DNA from: Trueperaceae bacterium
Lineage (GTDB): Bacteria > Deinococcota > Deinococci > Deinococcales > Trueperaceae
NCBI GenBank assembly: GCA_965214405.1
Contig: OZ243956.1
Coordinates: 32,001 to 96,000, forward strand
Reading direction: 5' to 3'
DNA length: 64,000 nt
The notes beneath the pieces were generated by a model that searched no databases, was not told where the DNA came from, and was given only the letters and a program-made list of their open reading frames with translations. The translations under genes and the position numbers were made by a program. This document shows positions 55,867 to 62,555 of the stretch, piece by piece (position 1 is the stretch's first letter; each line of letters opens with the position of its first letter).

Positions 55867-58800
55867 GTGAGCCGTACTCTTGGCAAGGCGCAACGGCTCA
55901 CCGAACTGCTCGAGCTTCTCAAGCTCAAAGCCTGGACGAGCCGCGAACTCGCGGAACGCTTCGGGGTGCCCATCCGCACGGTTCAGCGCGACCTAGACAC
56001 GTTACGCGAGAGCGGGCATGGGGTCGCAACCTCAGAGGATTTCCGCCACCGCCTCACGCCGACGGGTTCGTCGCTTAACGCCGTCGAAGGACTCGCAGTT
56101 CACGCGGCGGTAAGGCTCTTGTACCACCACTCACCTACCCAGAACCGGTATTACCGCTCGGCTTTGGAGAAGCTGGCGGCGCTGCTGCCCGAACCTGCCA
56201 GGGGAATCGCGGCGGCGAGTGCGCAAGACCTGAAAGTGCGCCCCGGTGACGACCGGACTTTGGAGTTGGTCGCGCGGGCCTGGTTCGAGGGCAAAGTTCT
56301 GCGGTTCAAGTACCTCGCCCCGGATAGTTTTGAACCTGCCTGGCGCGAGTTGGAAACATATCTGCTCGAGGTCAGCCGCACTAACTTGGCCCTTTACGCC
56401 ATCGGTCAGGAGCGCACGTTCAACCAGGTGCTCACCTTCAAATTGTCCCGTATGAGCGATGTTCGTGTTTCGGACGATGCCTACGCCATCCCTGAAAGCT
56501 TTGCGCCGAGCGAATACTTGAGCGCTGCTTGGGGCGTGATGGGTGGGCAAGGGGACAAGGTGGCTAAAGTGCGCTTGCGCTTTGAGCCCGAAGCCGCCTC
56601 CCGCATCAAAGAGGGCGGCTATCCCAATTTGAGGGTAGAGAGGGAACTAGCGGACGGCTCGCTCGAGGTCGAAATCAAAGCAGGCACCGACAACACGGGC
56701 TTTCCAAAAGAACTCCTCCCCTGGGTACAGAGCTGGGGGCCACGGGTCGATGTTCTTGCGCCCAAGGCGCTGCGCGAACGCTGGCTGAGCGAGGCCGGTG
56801 CCGTCGCGTTGAGGCACCCTCACTTAAAAACGAGGCTCGCGTCACTAGATGACGCACCCAAAGGACAGACTGAACCTATGACGAATCTTTCAGCGAAGGC
56901 GGCGGCCCTGTGGGCCAAGAGTGGTGAAGACGAGCAGGGCTATAGCCTCGTGGGACACTTGTTGGACGTGGCGGCGGTGGCGCACGCCCTGCTCGAGCGC
57001 GAACCCCCGCAGACCCTGCGGCTTTACGCGGAGGATGTGGGGCTCGAGCCCGGCGACGCTAAGAAATGGATAGCGGCACTGGCGGGCTTACACGACATCG
57101 GCAAGGCGACCCCGGCCTTTCAGCGGCAGTGGGAACCGGGACGGCTGGTGGTCGAGGCAGCGGGGCTTACGTTTAGCAAGGGCGACAAGGGCACCGCACA
57201 CGGAAAACTCTCGCAGAAAATCTTGCAAGACGAGCTCAAAATCTACGGTTTAGGTAAGAGGCTCGCCGCTCAAGTTGCCGACGCCGTAGGCGCACATCAC
57301 GGTCTGCGAACCGCGAAGGGCGACTTGTCAGACAACGTCGTTCCGCAACAAGACATGGGCAACAATGCGTGGCAAGAAACCCGGCAAGAGCTGCTAACCG
57401 AGTTTCTAAAGGCCGTAGAAGTCGTTCAAATCTCACCCCCGATCACCGCCGCACTCACGGGCCAGGGCTTTATCCGATTAGCAGGCTTGACCAGCTTTGC
57501 CGATTGGATTGGCTCGACAGTTGACTTTTTTCCTACCGACCGCAAAGTAGAGAATTTGAGAGAGCACTTTCTCGACTCGTTGCTAAGGGCGCGCAAGGCC
57601 CTGAACGCGATAGGCTGGGAGCGCCGCGAGCCTTTAGCGGCGGAACCTCGAGCCTTCAACACCATCTTTCCTTTTGAGCCCAACGGTCTTCAAAAGCAAA
57701 TCGTCAACCTTGTCGAGCAAACGCGTGAACCCTCTCTTCTCATCGTCGAAGCGCCGATGGGGGAAGGAAAAACGGAGGCTGCCTTCTACGCCCACGTCAC
57801 TTTGCAACGGCAGTTGGGGCACCGAGGCTTGTACGTGGCGCTGCCCACGCAGGCAACGGGTAACGCCATGTTTGAGCGCACCAAAAACCTTCTCAGCACC
57901 TTCGAGCGCGACACGCCACCCGACTTGCAGCTTTTACACGGCTCGAGCCTGCTCAACGACGCTTACGCCACCATCCAAATCAAGGATGTAGATGGAGTGG
58001 ACAACACAGAGAGCGAGGTGTGGGCCAGAACCTGGTTCACCAGCAAAAAGCGGGCGCTGCTTTCGGAAAACGGGGTGGGCACGGTTGACCAGGCGCTCCT
58101 CAGCGTTCTAAACATCAAACATCAATTTGTGCGCCTGTGGGGATTGGGTAACCGCACGGTTGTTTTGGATGAAGTCCACGCGTATGAGCTTTACACGAGC
58201 AAGCTCATTGAGCGCCTAGTCTGCTGGCTGCACGCGCTCGGCTCGTCGGTCATCATCATGAGCGCGACGCTGCCCACCGCCAAACGACTAGATTTAGTCA
58301 AAGCCTTTGGCGGCGGCGCGGCCGAGGAGCCCGTCTCTTACCCACGCATCACGCAGGTGCTGGGCGGAGAGACCAAGGAGGTTTCGTTCTCGGTGAGAGA
58401 GCAGAAGCCTATGAGCTTGAAAAGGGTCAGCCTAGATCTCGAGACGGTAGCAAACCTTCTCACAGGCTTGATGACGGACGGCGGTTGCTCGGTGGCTATT
58501 CTAAACACGGTGCAGCGGGCGCAAACTCTTTACAGCCTGTTTGGGGAGGGTGAAGGTCTTGAGGCCGGAAAGCGTTTACCCGACGGCACCGAGGTCTATC
58601 TGTTCCACGCCCGTTATCCGGCGGAGGAGCGGAAAAAGCGGGAGGAGGCGGTGCTGGGGAAGTTCGGCAAGGGCGGAGAGCGCCCAGCCAAGGCCATTCT
58701 CATCGCCACGCAGGTGGTTGAGCAGAGTTTAGACCTTGATTTTGACGTGATGGTGAGCGACTTAGCGCCCGTCGATTTGCTCTTGCAGCGTGCCGGACGG

Positions 58801-59556
58801 ATGCACCGCCACGAGCGCGAACGTCCCGCCGCCCACGCGTCGCCCGTCCTTTACGTGGCAGGGCTGACCGACGCCGAGACGCTACCGGATGTCAGCAGCG
58901 AATACTTCGATTGGGTTTACGAAGCGTTCACGCTTTACATGACGTGGTGGACCTTGGCTGATAAGGAAGTTATTGCGTTACCTGAAGACTTTGAGCCGCT
59001 TATCAAAGCCGTATACGGCGAAACCGATTTTACGGCGCTGCCGGATTTCGCCCGTGAGGTGGTTGAGCAAAGCCGCGCGGACCAGGAAGGAGAAGCCGAC
59101 ACCCACAAGCGAAAAGCTGTCAGCTCAGCTAACGTGATACCTCTGCCAAACATCTACCCGACCACCGACGGCGTCAGTTCGGTTGTCAAGAGCGAGGACG
59201 ACGAAGACCCCAGCCTTCACGAGCACTACCGGCCCGCGACGCGTCTGGGCGATCCCAGCGTCACGGTCATCCCCTTACATAAAAAGGATGACAAGCTTTA
59301 CCTCGAGCCCTCCTACGAAACCGAAATCGTGTTGAACAAGGAACCCTCATGGCAAGCGGCGAGAACCCTCTATCTGCAACACCTCAAGCTGAGCCGTAAA
59401 GGTCTTGTGTTCGAGCTTGTTAAATATCCAGTACCCGCTTGGCAGAAGCAACCGCTGCTGCGTTACTGCTTCCCGCTCACTTTTGAGGAGAGGGTGGCAG
59501 TGGTTGGGAAATTGACCCTTCGCTATGACGATGCGCTAGGGATTGTGTATGGGTAG
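55867..59556 (+). CDS. cas3: HTH-WYL-WCX regulator fused to type I-E Cas3 (HD nuclease + SF2 helicase)
   Basis: N-terminal ELAERFGV..RTVQRDL HTH and TFKLSRM WYL motif; from aa 338 LWAKS..HLLDV, HDIGK, HHG, ADW, APMGEGKT, DEVH, SAT, QRAGR. Confidence 0.93.
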   Translation: MSRTLGKAQRLTELLELLKLKAWTSRELAERFGVPIRTVQRDLDTLRESGHGVATSEDFRHRLTPTGSSLNAVEGLAVHAAVRLLYHHSPTQNRYYRSALEKLAALLPEPARGIAAASAQDLKVRPGDDRTLELVARAWFEGKVLRFKYLAPDSFEPAWRELETYLLEVSRTNLALYAIGQERTFNQVLTFKLSRMSDVRVSDDAYAIPESFAPSEYLSAAWGVMGGQGDKVAKVRLRFEPEAASRIKEGGYPNLRVERELADGSLEVEIKAGTDNTGFPKELLPWVQSWGPRVDVLAPKALRERWLSEAGAVALRHPHLKTRLASLDDAPKGQTEPMTNLSAKAAALWAKSGEDEQGYSLVGHLLDVAAVAHALLEREPPQTLRLYAEDVGLEPGDAKKWIAALAGLHDIGKATPAFQRQWEPGRLVVEAAGLTFSKGDKGTAHGKLSQKILQDELKIYGLGKRLAAQVADAVGAHHGLRTAKGDLSDNVVPQQDMGNNAWQETRQELLTEFLKAVEVVQISPPITAALTGQGFIRLAGLTSFADWIGSTVDFFPTDRKVENLREHFLDSLLRARKALNAIGWERREPLAAEPRAFNTIFPFEPNGLQKQIVNLVEQTREPSLLIVEAPMGEGKTEAAFYAHVTLQRQLGHRGLYVALPTQATGNAMFERTKNLLSTFERDTPPDLQLLHGSSLLNDAYATIQIKDVDGVDNTESEVWARTWFTSKKRALLSENGVGTVDQALLSVLNIKHQFVRLWGLGNRTVVLDEVHAYELYTSKLIERLVCWLHALGSSVIIMSATLPTAKRLDLVKAFGGGAAEEPVSYPRITQVLGGETKEVSFSVREQKPMSLKRVSLDLETVANLLTGLMTDGGCSVAILNTVQRAQTLYSLFGEGEGLEAGKRLPDGTEVYLFHARYPAEERKKREEAVLGKFGKGGERPAKAILIATQVVEQSLDLDFDVMVSDLAPVDLLLQRAGRMHRHERERPAAHASPVLYVAGLTDAETLPDVSSEYFDWVYEAFTLYMTWWTLADKEVIALPEDFEPLIKAVYGETDFTALPDFAREVVEQSRADQEGEADTHKRKAVSSANVIPLPNIYPTTDGVSSVVKSEDDEDPSLHEHYRPATRLGDPSVTVIPLHKKDDKLYLEPSYETEIVLNKEPSWQAARTLYLQHLKLSRKGLVFELVKYPVPAWQKQPLLRYCFPLTFEERVAVVGKLTLRYDDALGIVYG

Positions 59557-59596
59557 CTTTACCCAGAAGCCTTGTTATGGTTGCTGTGCAAGCGCG

Positions 59597-59635
59597 GAAG
59601 TTAGCCTTGACTAACCTCCCTATTTCGACTACTAT
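59597..59635 (+). promoter_or_regulatory. TA operon promoter with overlapping inverted-repeat operator
   Basis: TTGACT 59607-59612, N17, TACTAT 59630-59635; IR GGAAGTTAG-N6-CTAACCTCC over the -35. Confidence 0.6.
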
Positions 59636-59650
59636 GCTATCGAGGACGTA

Positions 59651-60010
59651 GTGAGCTCTACGCCGTACATCGTTTACGAGTACGAGGACGAAAATGGTTA
59701 CTCCGAGTTTCGGGAGTGGCGCAAGGCGCTTAGACGCTCCAATCCTAGAGCTTCTGCGAAAGTCGATTGGCTCATCGCGCTGCTCGAGGACAAAGGTACA
59801 ACACTGTCGTTTCCCTACGTCAGTCATATAGACGGGCCGATTTATGAACTGCGCGGTAAAACCGGACGTAACACCGTACGCATTTATTACTGGCAACAGG
59901 ACAAAGAGGTATTCATCGCCGCCGCGGGCGAGGTGAAGCAGCAGAACCAAGCTGACCGCAAGCTTATTAGGAAAGCTTTGGCAGCTTACGAGGAATATAA
60001 CAAGGAGTAA
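59651..60010 (+). CDS. RelE/ParE (HigB/Gp49-like) toxin
   Basis: L...G..L.FPY..HI.G.IYELR....VRI.Y pattern; toxin-first gene order. Confidence 0.85.
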   Translation: MSSTPYIVYEYEDENGYSEFREWRKALRRSNPRASAKVDWLIALLEDKGTTLSFPYVSHIDGPIYELRGKTGRNTVRIYYWQQDKEVFIAAAGEVKQQNQADRKLIRKALAAYEEYNKE

Positions 60011-60014
60011 CGCC

Positions 60015-60410
60015 ATGCCAAAACGTCCCTTGAAACGAGCGAGCGACCTAAGCCAAGAGTTTTTGCAAGACCCCGGTTACGCTGCTCTATACCGTGAGGT
60101 CGCTAACGAAGAGATTGGAGCGGCGCTGCGCACAGTGCGCGAGGCTAAGGGGTTAAGCCAGCGTGAGGTTGCCGAGCGCATGGGCGTGACGCGTCCACGT
60201 GTGTCGCAGATTGAAAGTGTCGAGGGTACGGCGTTGGCGCTCGAGGTGCTCAGCCGCTACGCCCGCGCGGTAGGGTGCCGCCTCGACATCACTTTGAAAG
60301 ACGCCGAGACCAACCATGAGGTTGCTGCGCTGTTTGTACCAACGCTCGAGGCTACCGCGCCAAAACCGCCCGGCGCGGAGCCTTATGAAAAAGCAGAGGG
60401 GGTAGCCTGA
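60015..60410 (+). CDS. XRE-family HTH antitoxin (HigA-like)
   Basis: LRTVREAKGLSQREVAERMGVTRPRVSQIE. Confidence 0.88.
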   Translation: MPKRPLKRASDLSQEFLQDPGYAALYREVANEEIGAALRTVREAKGLSQREVAERMGVTRPRVSQIESVEGTALALEVLSRYARAVGCRLDITLKDAETNHEVAALFVPTLEATAPKPPGAEPYEKAEGVA

Positions 60411-60465
60411 AAGATAGTTCCGCACCACGTAGGCACAACGGTTATGGGTAGAATGAGTTTGAAAC

Positions 60466-60555
60466 ATTTTCCCTACACGCGTGGGGATGAACCTTAGTAA
60501 TTCCACCTGTGGACGTAATAGTGAATATCCTCCCCACACCAGTGGGGCTGCGGTT
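60466..60555 (+). CRISPR. Single-spacer mini-array of type I-E-like repeats (crRNA-like regulatory RNA)
   Basis: Repeat ATTTTCCCTACACGCGTGGGGATGAACCT (60466-60494), 32-nt spacer (60495-60526), repeat ATCCTCCCCACACCAGTGGGGCTGCGGTT (60527-60555); both hairpins preserved; -10 TAGAAT at 60449-60454. Confidence 0.85.
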
Positions 60556-60562
60556 GGTGGGT

Positions 60563-60623
60563 AAGTAGTAATTCCACCTGTGGATGTAAAGCCTTGACTC
60601 CGATACTGTCCCGTGTGTATAGT
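60563..60623 (+). promoter_or_regulatory. Promoter overlapped by the mini-array target (AAG PAM + protospacer)
   Basis: AAG 60563-60565, protospacer 60566-60597, TTGACT 60594-60599, N18, TATAGT 60618-60623. Confidence 0.75.
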
Positions 60624-60776
60624 GAAAAAGCGTGGCTGGGGCCTACCGCGAAATAGTCACCCCACCACGCCTCAAGGGACATGCCCTCTGAATCCGATTT
60701 TACCTTAGCTTTGGCACAAATTCAAAGGGCGTCCACTTTAACGTAGGGAGGTTTCCACCTCTCGGACGGGAGTAAC

Positions 60777-60962
60777 GTGTTAGACCTCGAGGACACCACC
60801 TACCAAGCGTTTAGGGACAGCCTGTATCAGGTTGACGAGCGAGACCGCGCCGTGCTGTGGGAGTTCTGGCCCCACTTTCAATCGGCTTTGAACTCTCGAC
60901 ATGGAGAGTGGCAGAAGCTGACGTTAACGGGCTCGCTCGATGACGACGATGTAGACCGTTAA
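60777..60962 (+). CDS. Small acidic orphan protein (61 aa), candidate CRISPR-repressed effector
   Basis: SD GGGAG, GTG start; lies between the targeted promoter and a terminator. Confidence 0.6.
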   Translation: MLDLEDTTYQAFRDSLYQVDERDRAVLWEFWPHFQSALNSRHGEWQKLTLTGSLDDDDVDR

Positions 60963-60967
60963 CCGTG

Positions 60968-61001
60968 GTGAGGCGCATCCCGCGCCTCACTTCTTTATTT
61001 T
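60968..61001 (+). terminator. Intrinsic terminator
   Basis: GTGAGGCGC-ATCCC-GCGCCTCAC followed by TTCTTTATTTT. Confidence 0.85.
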
Positions 61002-61006
61002 GGCGA

Positions 61007-61038
61007 CGTCACTACATGACGCACCCCCCTCTTACACT
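61007..61038 (+). promoter_or_regulatory. Cascade operon promoter with palindromic operator
   Basis: CGTCA-CTACA-TGACG-CACCC (19/20 identical to 56840-56859), -10 TACACT 61033-61038, then SD GAAAGGAGG. Confidence 0.65.
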
Positions 61039-61058
61039 GCTTTTGAAAGGAGGCCGAG

Positions 61059-62555
61059 ATGTTTAACCTCATCCATGAACCTTGGCTGCGGGTCGAAAAC
61101 CCAGACGGCTCGCTAGGCCAGGACTCGCTAAAGGGGGTTTTATTAAACGCCCACCGCTACGCGCGGCTGGCCCACCCCTCCCCCGCCGTGCTCCCGGCGC
61201 TGCACCGCTTTCTACTGGCGGTGCTGTACCGGGTACTGGACGAACCACGCAGTACCGATGAAGGGGTTGATTTGTTCAAACAGGGTCGGTTTCCGGCGGA
61301 GCGCGTCGGTGCTTATCTCGAGCACTGGCAAGACCGCTTCGACCTGTTCCACCCTGAAAGGCCCTTTTACCAGGTGCCGGACTCGGAAGATAAGGTGTCA
61401 GGGGTCGCCCGGCTCGCAGCCGAACTCGCCAGCGGCACGAACAAACTCCTCTTCGACCACACCGCGGAGGCCGACCCGCCGGAGTTGACGCACGCCGAAA
61501 TCGCGCAACTGCTCGTGACCCGGCAGATGACCGCCATCCCCGAAGGCGCGGGCTACAGCCCCAGCCCGGCGGGCGGCGCGGCGTTCGTGCTGCCGCAGGG
61601 TCGCAACCTGTTCGAGACGCTGGTGCTCAACCTCGTTCCTTATTCTGAGGAGGAGAACGAGGACGACGCGCCCATTTGGGAAGGGGCTACGCCGAAGAGC
61701 GCGGCGGTAAAAGCCGCCAAGCCGCGCGGCTCGAGAGGGCTTACCGAACGTTACACCTGGCTAACGCGCATCGTTAAGTTGCAAGAACCCGAGGGTGACG
61801 CGCCTGTGTCGGCGCTGCATTATGCGGCAGGCATCAAGTTCGATGGCGGCGACAGCCCCGACCCCATGTTGGCTTACCGCAAAGATGAAAAGCGCGGGCT
61901 CCTCCCGGTATCTTTCAACAAGTACAAGGCGTTCTGGCGGGACTTTCAGGCCCTAATACCCAATCCCGACAGCGGAAGCTACTTAGCGCCCCAGACGGTA
62001 AAACACGCTCGCAACATATATGAAGAATTAGAGCGCACCGACCCCCTCACCTTACTGGTTTCCGGCCTGAGCAATGACAAGGCCAAGGTCGTGCTGTGGC
62101 GTACCGAACAGTTCAACGTGCCGCAGGTCCTCCTTCAAAATCCGGGGGCTTACGCCGAGTTGACGCGGCTGCTCGAGTACGCCGACAACGGCGGGCGCAC
62201 CCTCTACGGCGCGACGCAGCGCTTGGCGGAAAAGTTGCTGAGCATTGGCGAACGTAAACCCGACCCCGCCGACGTTCGCAACCTGGCCGCGAGTTTTCCC
62301 GCCAGTATGCACTACTGGAGCAGGCTCGAGACCCGCTTTCCCGAACTGCTGGAGCGCTTTGAGACTCAGACCTTTGATGAGCGGTTCAGTTGGTGGTTAG
62401 GGCAAATCACCCTTGTAACGCGCGAAGCCTGGGAGCTTGCCTTAAAGAGCGCCGGGGAAAACGAGCGCGCCTGGCGGGCCGGGGCCGAGGCGAGCAAGGT
62501 CATCAACACCCACCTCAAACGCCTGCGCGAACAGACAGCCGAGCCAGCCCCATAG
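61059..62555 (+). CDS. casA: Type I-E Cascade large subunit Cas8e (Cse1/CasA)
   Basis: FNLIHEPWL, LHRFLLAVL, DRFDLFHPERPFYQ, LFDH, G.NLFETL.LNL. Confidence 0.95.
   Translation: MFNLIHEPWLRVENPDGSLGQDSLKGVLLNAHRYARLAHPSPAVLPALHRFLLAVLYRVLDEPRSTDEGVDLFKQGRFPAERVGAYLEHWQDRFDLFHPERPFYQVPDSEDKVSGVARLAAELASGTNKLLFDHTAEADPPELTHAEIAQLLVTRQMTAIPEGAGYSPSPAGGAAFVLPQGRNLFETLVLNLVPYSEEENEDDAPIWEGATPKSAAVKAAKPRGSRGLTERYTWLTRIVKLQEPEGDAPVSALHYAAGIKFDGGDSPDPMLAYRKDEKRGLLPVSFNKYKAFWRDFQALIPNPDSGSYLAPQTVKHARNIYEELERTDPLTLLVSGLSNDKAKVVLWRTEQFNVPQVLLQNPGAYAELTRLLEYADNGGRTLYGATQRLAEKLLSIGERKPDPADVRNLAASFPASMHYWSRLETRFPELLERFETQTFDERFSWWLGQITLVTREAWELALKSAGENERAWRAGAEASKVINTHLKRLREQTAEPAP

Follow-up and report, generated by a model that had tools for sequence, protein, structure and literature searches.

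A small acidic protein gene behind a candidate Cascade-targeted promoter in CRISPR-cas loci of type I-E from Trueperaceae and Thermus

The 64,000-nucleotide (nt) stretch of Trueperaceae bacterium DNA considered here (contig OZ243956.1 of assembly GCA_965214405.1, positions 32,001 to 96,000 of the forward strand; hereafter the window, numbered from its first letter) ends in a type I-E CRISPR-cas locus: a cas3 fusion, a Gp49/HigB-like and HTH_3 gene pair, a 648-bp gap, cas8e, cse2 and cas7. In the gap we find a degenerate mini-array, a promoter flanked by a close match to the mini-array's pseudo-spacer, and an open reading frame (ORF) for a 61-amino acid (aa) acidic protein, ORF61. The locus is best read as a new protein-cargo form of the known CRISPR-repressed modules, in type I-E. 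By analogy with those modules, the cargo could be a CreP-like effector protein of a new family that serves as a growth-arresting guard of the CRISPR system. We advance this more specific explanation tentatively; it falls somewhat short of being probable. All features described lie on the + strand of the window, whose genome is called G000 below; G032 denotes the orthologous locus in another Trueperaceae genus.

The mini-array (60466-60555) resembles creA and creR. It was recognized by reading the sequence against the repeat consensus of the genome's own CRISPR array, which lies outside the window and counts about 76 copies of CTATTCCCCACGCAGGTGGGGATGAACCG, spaced at a period of 61 nt. It comprises a first pseudo-repeat (PsiR1, 60466-60494), a pseudo-spacer (PsiS, 60495-60526) and a second pseudo-repeat (PsiR2, 60527-60555). 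PsiR1 has seven of the eight 5′-handle bases of the genome's repeat, its end being ATGAACCT where the repeat has ATGAACCG, and is also similar to the CRISPR repeats of G032. PsiR2 retains the repeat's hairpin, TCCCCAC-N4-GTGGGG. The handle and the hairpin are features of CreTA and CrePA modules, as is a pseudo-spacer partly complementary to the cargo promoter beside a protospacer adjacent motif (PAM). Such a target is present: the first 24 bases of PsiS are repeated, with one mismatch, at 60566-60589, directly 3′ of an AAG PAM (60563-60565). The last eight bases of the 32-nt protospacer (60566-60597) are unmatched, and the protospacer shares four bases with the -35 box of the promoter that follows. 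AAG-flanked matches in 200 shuffles of the intergenic region reached at most 17 of 24, as compared with the 23 of 24 observed, and a 19-mer common to spacer and target occurs at two sites only, PsiS and the target, in the 4.5-Mb genome. In type I-E, unpaired PAM-distal bases should permit Cascade binding without Cas3 recruitment; the eight-base PAM-distal mismatch should thus allow binding of that kind here. An earlier note on this DNA, made from the sequence alone, had called the promoter Cascade-targeted, and the pairing beside an AAG at the -35 box, at a site unique in the genome, bears this out.

The promoter (60594-60623) is of the sigma-70 type, TTGACT-18-TATAGT, with 10 of the 12 consensus positions; a scan of 59500-61500 found four promoter-like sites, as against 0.6 expected from shuffled sequences. 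Placed by the -10 box alone, the transcription start would be at about 60630, which leaves a leader of about 147 nt before ORF61 (60630-60776). The leader is predicted to fold into two hairpins (60630-60670 and 60672-60691; z -2.7). Hairpin 1 has an 11-bp stem and an 18-nt loop ending AATAGTCA; hairpin 2 has a stem of 4-7 bp and a loop of AYATG (ACATG in G000). The leader of G032 (L013 8748-8807, minus strand) forms the same two hairpins with different stem sequences, the z scores being -2.7 and -3.1 for the two genomes. The length and the end of the hairpin 1 loop are the same in both and, by eye, 7 of the 11 pairs of its stem are altered on both sides, although two sequences are too few for a covariation test. 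Rfam gave no match in 59500-61500 at E values up to 1, the two-hairpin leader element included.

ORF61 (60777-60962) starts with GTG, and GGGAG, a putative Shine-Dalgarno (SD) site from which it would be translated, lies 4 nt upstream. Its translation is as the earlier note gave it. By Nei-Gojobori counting, the G000 and G032 copies have 21.0 synonymous and 12.0 non-synonymous differences, a dN/dS of 0.087; the other two frames give 0.59 and 3.3, and the neighboring genes 0.14-0.24. The two copies also differ by a 3-nt indel that keeps the frame. Since the ratio is low in this frame and not in the other two, ORF61 is a real gene under purifying selection. The encoded protein has 14 acidic and 6 basic residues, a net charge of -8 and an isoelectric point (pI) of 4.3. 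AlphaFold2 predicts helices at residues 4-16, 21-29 and 31-51 and a disordered acidic tail (predicted local distance difference test score 78-79). Neither ORF61 nor its relatives belong to a real family in Pfam, PHROGs, NCBIfam or PADLOC, and the KilAC domain, found in the CreP family, is absent. The best library match, to DndF (14 bits over 46 residues), was taken as chance. A fold search against PDB and BFVD returned nothing with an E value of 0.001 or better; generic helical hairpins, with a VIA-align Z of 6.0 at best, were not accepted as its fold. By sequence, PDB gave weak helical-repeat matches only and the ESM Atlas no usable match.

The gene is followed by an intrinsic-terminator-like hairpin and T-run (60967-61001). 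The stem (60967-60991) has 10 pairs, seven of them G-C, with a loop of 5 nt; the tail is TCTTTATTTT and the fold has a predicted energy of -18.7 kcal/mol. Two terminator-like sites were found in the scanned region as against 2.1 expected from shuffles, so that the scan by itself is not significant. The case for a terminator comes from conservation: between the ORF61 stop and the cas8e ATG, 93 of 96 bases are identical in G000 and G032, the stem-loop and T-run being identical throughout, and this exceeds by far the conservation of synonymous sites in the flanking genes (dS 0.16-1.05).

Beyond the hairpin lies what appears to be a control region of cas8e itself (61007-61038): an operator, CGTCACTACATGACG, at 61007-61021, a spacing of 11 nt and a -10-like TACACT at 61033-61038. 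The same layout, CG[TA]C[AG]-N5-TGACG, 11 nt, TAnnnT, stands 52-70 nt 5′ of cas8e in nine loci across Trueperaceae and Thermus-type I-E systems (the window plus L028, L025, L088, L092, L096, L099 and L100 among them). In G035, G352 and G340 the motif precedes cas8e in cas3-cas8e gaps of only 47-85 nt that have no mini-array or small ORF. The ORF61 unit is thus located 5′ of the native cas8e promoter, with the putative terminator between them. As cas8e keeps its own operator and -10 element, also in loci without the module, the silenced unit in the window is probably not the cas operon. The earlier note had said as much, and had likewise credited cas8e with a promoter of its own. Its inventory of a promoter, a leader of about 150 nt, an SD site with a GTG ORF, and a terminator also agrees with what is found, and the unit does look self-contained, having a promoter, a conserved terminator and, between them, an ORF kept by purifying selection.

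The module has diverged between relatives in a modular fashion. BLAST aligns G000 with G032 at 86% identity up to 60493, the last base but one of PsiR1, and again at 88% from 60783, the third codon of ORF61. The interval 60493-60783 cannot be aligned; within it are spacer, PsiR2, PAM, target, promoter, leader and start codon, and each genome keeps the layout with a spacer-target pair of its own. Relatives have exchanged spacer, target, promoter and leader wholesale and retained ORF61 and the terminator. At least three cassette versions coexist, between flanks of 86-100% identity, in one sample's contigs that cover 60454-60798 (runs X1 and X2). The first is that of the window itself. The second is G032-like, with 366 bases standing in place of 343 that are skipped. 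The third departs from the window exactly 5′ of 60783 and has AAGGAG, 4 nt and ATG before the ORF. Since these runs could themselves be the source of the window, they do not count as independent support. Cassette swapping between co-occurring relatives is in keeping with the arms race against viral guide mimics that has been published (10.1101/2024.10.29.618823). Fast turnover would be expected if such mimics select new spacer-target pairs.

A single clear orthologue of ORF61, that of G032 (82% amino-acid identity), was found among 61 relatives, 128 family genomes and 364 phylum genomes; a collection of 5.8 billion proteins added two ORF61-like proteins of 77-78% identity. For the wiring, we surveyed 1.5 kb 5′ of cas8e in 43 loci of 41 genomes, 13 of the loci coming from the family search and the rest being the 30 best from 105 Cse1-carrying phylum genomes. 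The combination of handle, pseudo-spacer and AAG-flanked promoter target satisfied a strict seed rule in G000, G074, G018, G039 and G358, and could be recognized by reading the sequence in G032, G361 and G346. G032 has another spacer-target pair, whose seed pairs over 10 bases with position 6 free; 18 of 24 bases match beside an AAG, and 6 nt separate the end of the target from the -35 box. In G358, G361 and G346 the -35 sequence TTGACA overlaps the PAM, which reads CTT on the top strand, and an acidic ORF of 66-89 aa then ends about 35-50 nt before cas8e. The protein of G361 is identical to an NCBI "hypothetical protein" of Thermus filiformis. This Thermus form is present in 4 of 364 Deinococcota genomes, each time directly 5′ of cas8e; the Trueperaceae form is clear in 2 of the 364.

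An alignment of 11 sequences gives the core F-x-D-x-L-x3-E-[RK]-D-R-x2-L-x2-F ... G-[SD]-L-D-[DE], with a 21-residue insertion in the Trueperaceae members, and the pI is 4.3-4.8 in nine of the ten full-length members. A profile search brought in three more proteins, unnamed or called "hypothetical," so that the family numbers about a dozen sequences of 60-90 aa from Trueperaceae and Thermus. Every member of known context lies between a targeted promoter and cas8e. Comparison of the Trueperaceae and Thermus profiles by hhalign gives a weak match (P 0.008 over 27 columns), and G346 (WQK...STGDLD) bridges both groups. It is likely, not proven, that the two groups share descent; the link rests more on the 11-sequence alignment and the common position than on hhalign. 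ORF61 is therefore not the orphan that the earlier note took it for, being one of a small unannotated family that reaches into Thermus. The note had also asked whether the arrangement recurs between cas3 and cas8e with a mini-array, and it does so in G032, G018, G358, G039, G361 and G346.

Neither the metagenome contigs of JGI nor IMG/VR yielded an ORF61 relative, tblastn against phage and plasmid records gave no match, and a four-sequence profile run against 1.84 billion representatives found only the family's own cluster. Four long proteins that matched this profile (E 4e-5 to 3e-4), each over 4-9 short stretches, were set aside as compositional, and chance was taken to explain the matches of the ORF61 profile (E 0.003-0.05) within long frames of G088, G089 and others. 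Nor is the 47-aa ORF that occupies the same position in G074 accepted as a member (hhalign probability 0.2%). Also rejected were the pair-scan matches in L020 (two), L027, L029, L075 and L085, which have no repeat-like handle before the "spacer" and two of which are palindromes.

How might such a module work? The mini-array would yield a crRNA-like guide (crRNA, CRISPR RNA) with an 8-nt 5′ handle, the 32-nt pseudo-spacer and a hairpin as the 3′ handle. In Cascade, the guide would pair beside the -35 box of the 60594 promoter, with 23 of 24 PAM-proximal bases matched. The eight PAM-distal bases being unpaired, Cascade would bind without licensing Cas3 and block RNA polymerase. The transcript thus silenced would consist of the structured leader and the coding sequence of the 61-aa acidic protein, and would end at its own terminator; 40 nt beyond, an operator-controlled promoter would serve cas8e separately. 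The ORF61 protein would be made once Cascade is missing, titrated away or inhibited by an anti-CRISPR. The effector would then be the protein, acting like CreP as a growth-arresting guard; homology does not point to FtsZ as its target.

Several observations speak for a toxin: the wiring of the CreTA/CrePA type, the patchy distribution expected of an add-on, the precedent of CreP as a protein cargo and the fast turnover of the cassette. Others weigh against it. No membrane helix, enzyme domain, known toxin domain or fold match was found for the protein, and sequestration of the SD site in the G000 leader is not significant (z 0.74). The Thermus copies have no terminator and their 3′ ends overlap the cas8e operator, so that one transcript would cover them and cas8e. 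The protein would then also be made whenever autorepression is relieved in the ordinary course, an arrangement that fits autoregulation as well as it fits a guard; a shared promoter has been reported for one Pseudomonas CreTA (10.1101/2024.10.29.618823). Finally, of the eight genomic copies, three show damage or have no canonical start. G032 has CTG at the GTG position, with no ATG, GTG or TTG there, and its first canonical start leaves 35 codons. The G018 copy is frameshifted: the profile matches only in the C-terminal frame (E 5.5e-4 among 453 frames), which is out of frame with the start that has an SD site and ATG. The G039 copy is shortened to 26 codons, its guide and target remaining intact. 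Decay of this kind fits any dispensable gene, toxins being one case among others.

The alternative that survives best, unlikely as it is, keeps the wiring and dispenses with toxicity. The acidic protein would signal a shortage of Cascade, for instance as an anti-repressor or DNA mimic that lifts the HTH-WYL regulator, here fused to Cas3, off operators of cas3 and cas8e, so that both promoters rise when the Cascade-guide complex is scarce. An operator, CGTCACTA[C/G]ATGACGCACCC, is found before both the Cas3 part and cas8e. Its first copy, the inverted repeat CGTCA-N5-TGACG at 56840-56854, lies at the WYL/Cas3 junction inside the cas3 ORF, 24 nt 5′ of an in-frame ATG at 56878; the 15-mer CGTCACTACATGACG at 61007 is its near twin, and the two copies share 20 nt of identity. 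The arrangement recurs at both positions in other genomes, the junction copy being present in G032, G074, G038 and G007. Read-through from a promoter located 3′ of cas3 cannot serve cas3, and the window's terminator would cut off cas8e, which leaves a diffusible product as the only feedback route in the window. The strong acidity of the protein, in ORF61 and across the family, suits such a role, and in the Thermus-type loci, where the control element overlaps the last codons of the small acidic ORF, co-transcription with cas8e is what a regulator could show. On the other hand, WYL regulators occur in 206 of 364 Deinococcota genomes, which makes their co-occurrence uninformative, and that the WYL part binds the operator is itself something we infer. 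The bare inverted repeat is not enriched genome-wide (4 found, 5.2 expected), so the argument for an operator rests on the 20-nt identity of the two copies and the conserved position. A fuller version, of much the same low likelihood, is a two-tier circuit: ORF61, made when Cascade leaves its promoter, would neutralize the HTH-WYL regulator on the shared cas3/cas8e operator and place the whole locus under guide control by way of a protein. The literature searched describes no such feedback through a protein intermediate for any CRISPR system.

Plain autoregulation of the CreR kind comes next, and we regard it as improbable for the window. The targeted promoter would then be an upstream promoter of cas8e, the hairpin a leaky attenuator, and ORF61 either a passenger or the first cistron, playing a minor part or acting in cis. 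The type I-E CreR of Salmonella targets a site about 140 bp 5′ of casA (10.1101/2023.03.10.532045). No terminator separates the targeted promoter from cas8e in the Thermus-type loci, G018 and G074, and in the Thermus-type relatives the targeted promoter probably drives the effector cas genes, as it does in CreR systems. G039, with guide and target intact beside an ORF cut to 26 codons, is also easily accommodated. In the window, however, the 10-bp hairpin with its T-run intervenes and is kept base for base in G032, and cas8e has a conserved control region of its own. Moreover, a passenger would not be under the strong purifying selection that ORF61 shows over its full length.

Least credible, and in our judgment very unlikely, is a leader RNA that is itself the toxin, like CreT, acting through a mini-ORF of rare or slow codons beside the conserved hairpins: the two hairpins are kept in G000 and G032 despite differing stems, a GTG frame near the predicted start reads the identical loop end as ATA-GTC in both (continuing CCA-CCA in G000, with ATA and CCA among the three rarest codons) and the leader belongs to the swapped cassette, but the G000 GTG is inside a stem, 2 nt from the predicted 5′ end, agreement of frame between two sequences has one chance in three, with only two leaders compared, and Thermus members have short leaders or none. 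The published layout of CreT, an SD site and a 4-6-codon mini-ORF with two adjacent special codons, then a hairpin, is also missing: hairpins are present, and no mini-ORF among all those listed for the leader with their codon frequencies combines an efficient start and a stable hairpin with a run of few codons in which two neighboring ones are rare or encode proline. Of the earlier note's suggestion that the RNA might be the toxin, the conserved two-hairpin element remains, and the published CreT signatures do not.

The neighboring genes deserve a brief description. The cas3 gene (55867-59556) encodes an in-frame fusion of HTH-WYL-WCX and Cas3, 1229 aa, with Pfam domains HTH_11, WYL and WCX in residues 10-313 and Cas3_HD, helicase and Cas3_C in residues 349-1226. 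G074 encodes the regulator (320 aa) and Cas3 (910 aa) separately, and the same operator lies between the two genes; the fusion seems to recur in other Deinococcota, to judge by open frames of about 1080-1290 aa. The WYL/Cas3 junction (56800-56890) contains, besides the copy of the cas8e operator, a weak hairpin remnant and a -10-like CAGACT. Since CAGACT is only 6 nt before the in-frame ATG at 56878, a shorter leaderless Cas3 may also be made. At the other end of the gap, cas8e (Cse1/Cas8e, 61059-62555) is identified by Pfam PF09481 (E 9e-96).

Between cas3 and the mini-array is a toxin-antitoxin-like pair (59651-60410), a Gp49/HigB-like gene at 59651-60010 (PF05973, E 4e-11) and a HigA-like HTH_3 gene at 60015-60410 (PF01381, E 2e-12). 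It is 93-95% identical in G032 and is preceded by a promoter-like site at 59607-59635, which is no target of the mini-array. The mini-array is possibly co-transcribed with this pair, or read from a conserved TAGAAT at 60449.

Two other loci of the survey carry different genes next to such elements. In G074 (L024, about 1205-1225), an AAG PAM and 20 of 23 matches lie just before TTGACA-17-TAAACT, 5′ of cas8e, and the targeted transcript would contain a 15-nt mini-ORF, ATG AAG AGG AGG TAA, before the unrelated 47-aa ORF. The mini-ORF is a candidate for a classical CreT in type I-E, although no SD site or hairpin was seen. In G031 (L020), a mini-array about 875 nt 5′ of cas8e is followed by a RelE/ParE-like gene of 109 aa, and the 4.5-kb locus has no AAG-flanked target for its spacer.

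The sources cited here describe two sorts of CRISPR-repressed cargo: RNA toxins, in types I-B and I-F, and a single KilAC protein, in I-F. For type I-E, a search of the literature found no CRISPR-repressed cargo, only the autoregulation of cas genes by CreR. Thermus, Deinococc and Truepera do not occur in the main text of PMC10120712, the supplements of which may list such loci in their tables. Thermus likewise goes unmentioned, supplements aside, in 10.1101/2023.03.10.532045, PMC10120712, 10.1101/2024.10.29.618823, 10.1101/2024.01.05.574328 and PMC12737573. The last of these, a review of 2025, raises the question of whether other CRISPR types have protein cargoes directed at other cellular targets. 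The ORF61 family, conserved, unannotated, acidic and wired in type I-E to promoters that Cascade would target, is a concrete candidate, and the organisms that carry it have relatives in laboratory use. Should it prove a guard toxin, it would reveal a new target and could be used to screen for anti-CRISPRs of type I-E; should it be a relay regulator, it would add a new layer of cas control.

The comparison with known systems places the module among them as follows. With the CreTA modules it shares the silencing of a cargo promoter inside the cas locus, predicted in our case, by Cascade with a crRNA-like guide, and the strong variation among strains. The CreTA cargoes that are RNAs, in Haloarcula hispanica and Halobacterium hubeiense (I-B; PMC8501985) and in Pseudomonas aeruginosa (I-F; 10.64898/2026.06.02.729485), have a 4-6-codon mini-ORF with two rare or proline codons and a hairpin, an arrangement absent from the leader described here. 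The mini-ORF of G074 has the same format as the published Pseudomonas CreT, ATG AAA CCT CCG stop (10.64898/2026.06.02.729485), so that a CreT signature may be present there. The CreR of Salmonella enterica, also of type I-E, has the AAG PAM, the position between cas3 and cas8e, the PsiR1 handle, the PsiR2 hairpin and a guide partly complementary to a promoter region (10.1101/2023.03.10.532045). However, as described in that report, it targets the casA promoter itself and has no cargo gene, whereas here there are a protein gene, a terminator and a separate control region for cas8e. In CrePA of Acinetobacter baylyi ADP1 (I-F), a degenerate creA likewise adjoins the gene of a small protein, the two being placed between cas3 and the first of the effector genes, with a guide partly complementary to that gene's promoter and a cargo that is protein and not RNA; CreP, of 103 aa, is encoded with creA between cas3 and csy1 (10.1101/2024.01.05.574328). 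The ORF61 module differs from CrePA in belonging to type I-E with an AAG PAM, in a cargo of 61 aa that is strongly acidic, predicted to be all-helical and devoid of KilAC or any other recognized domain, and in having a terminator of its own.

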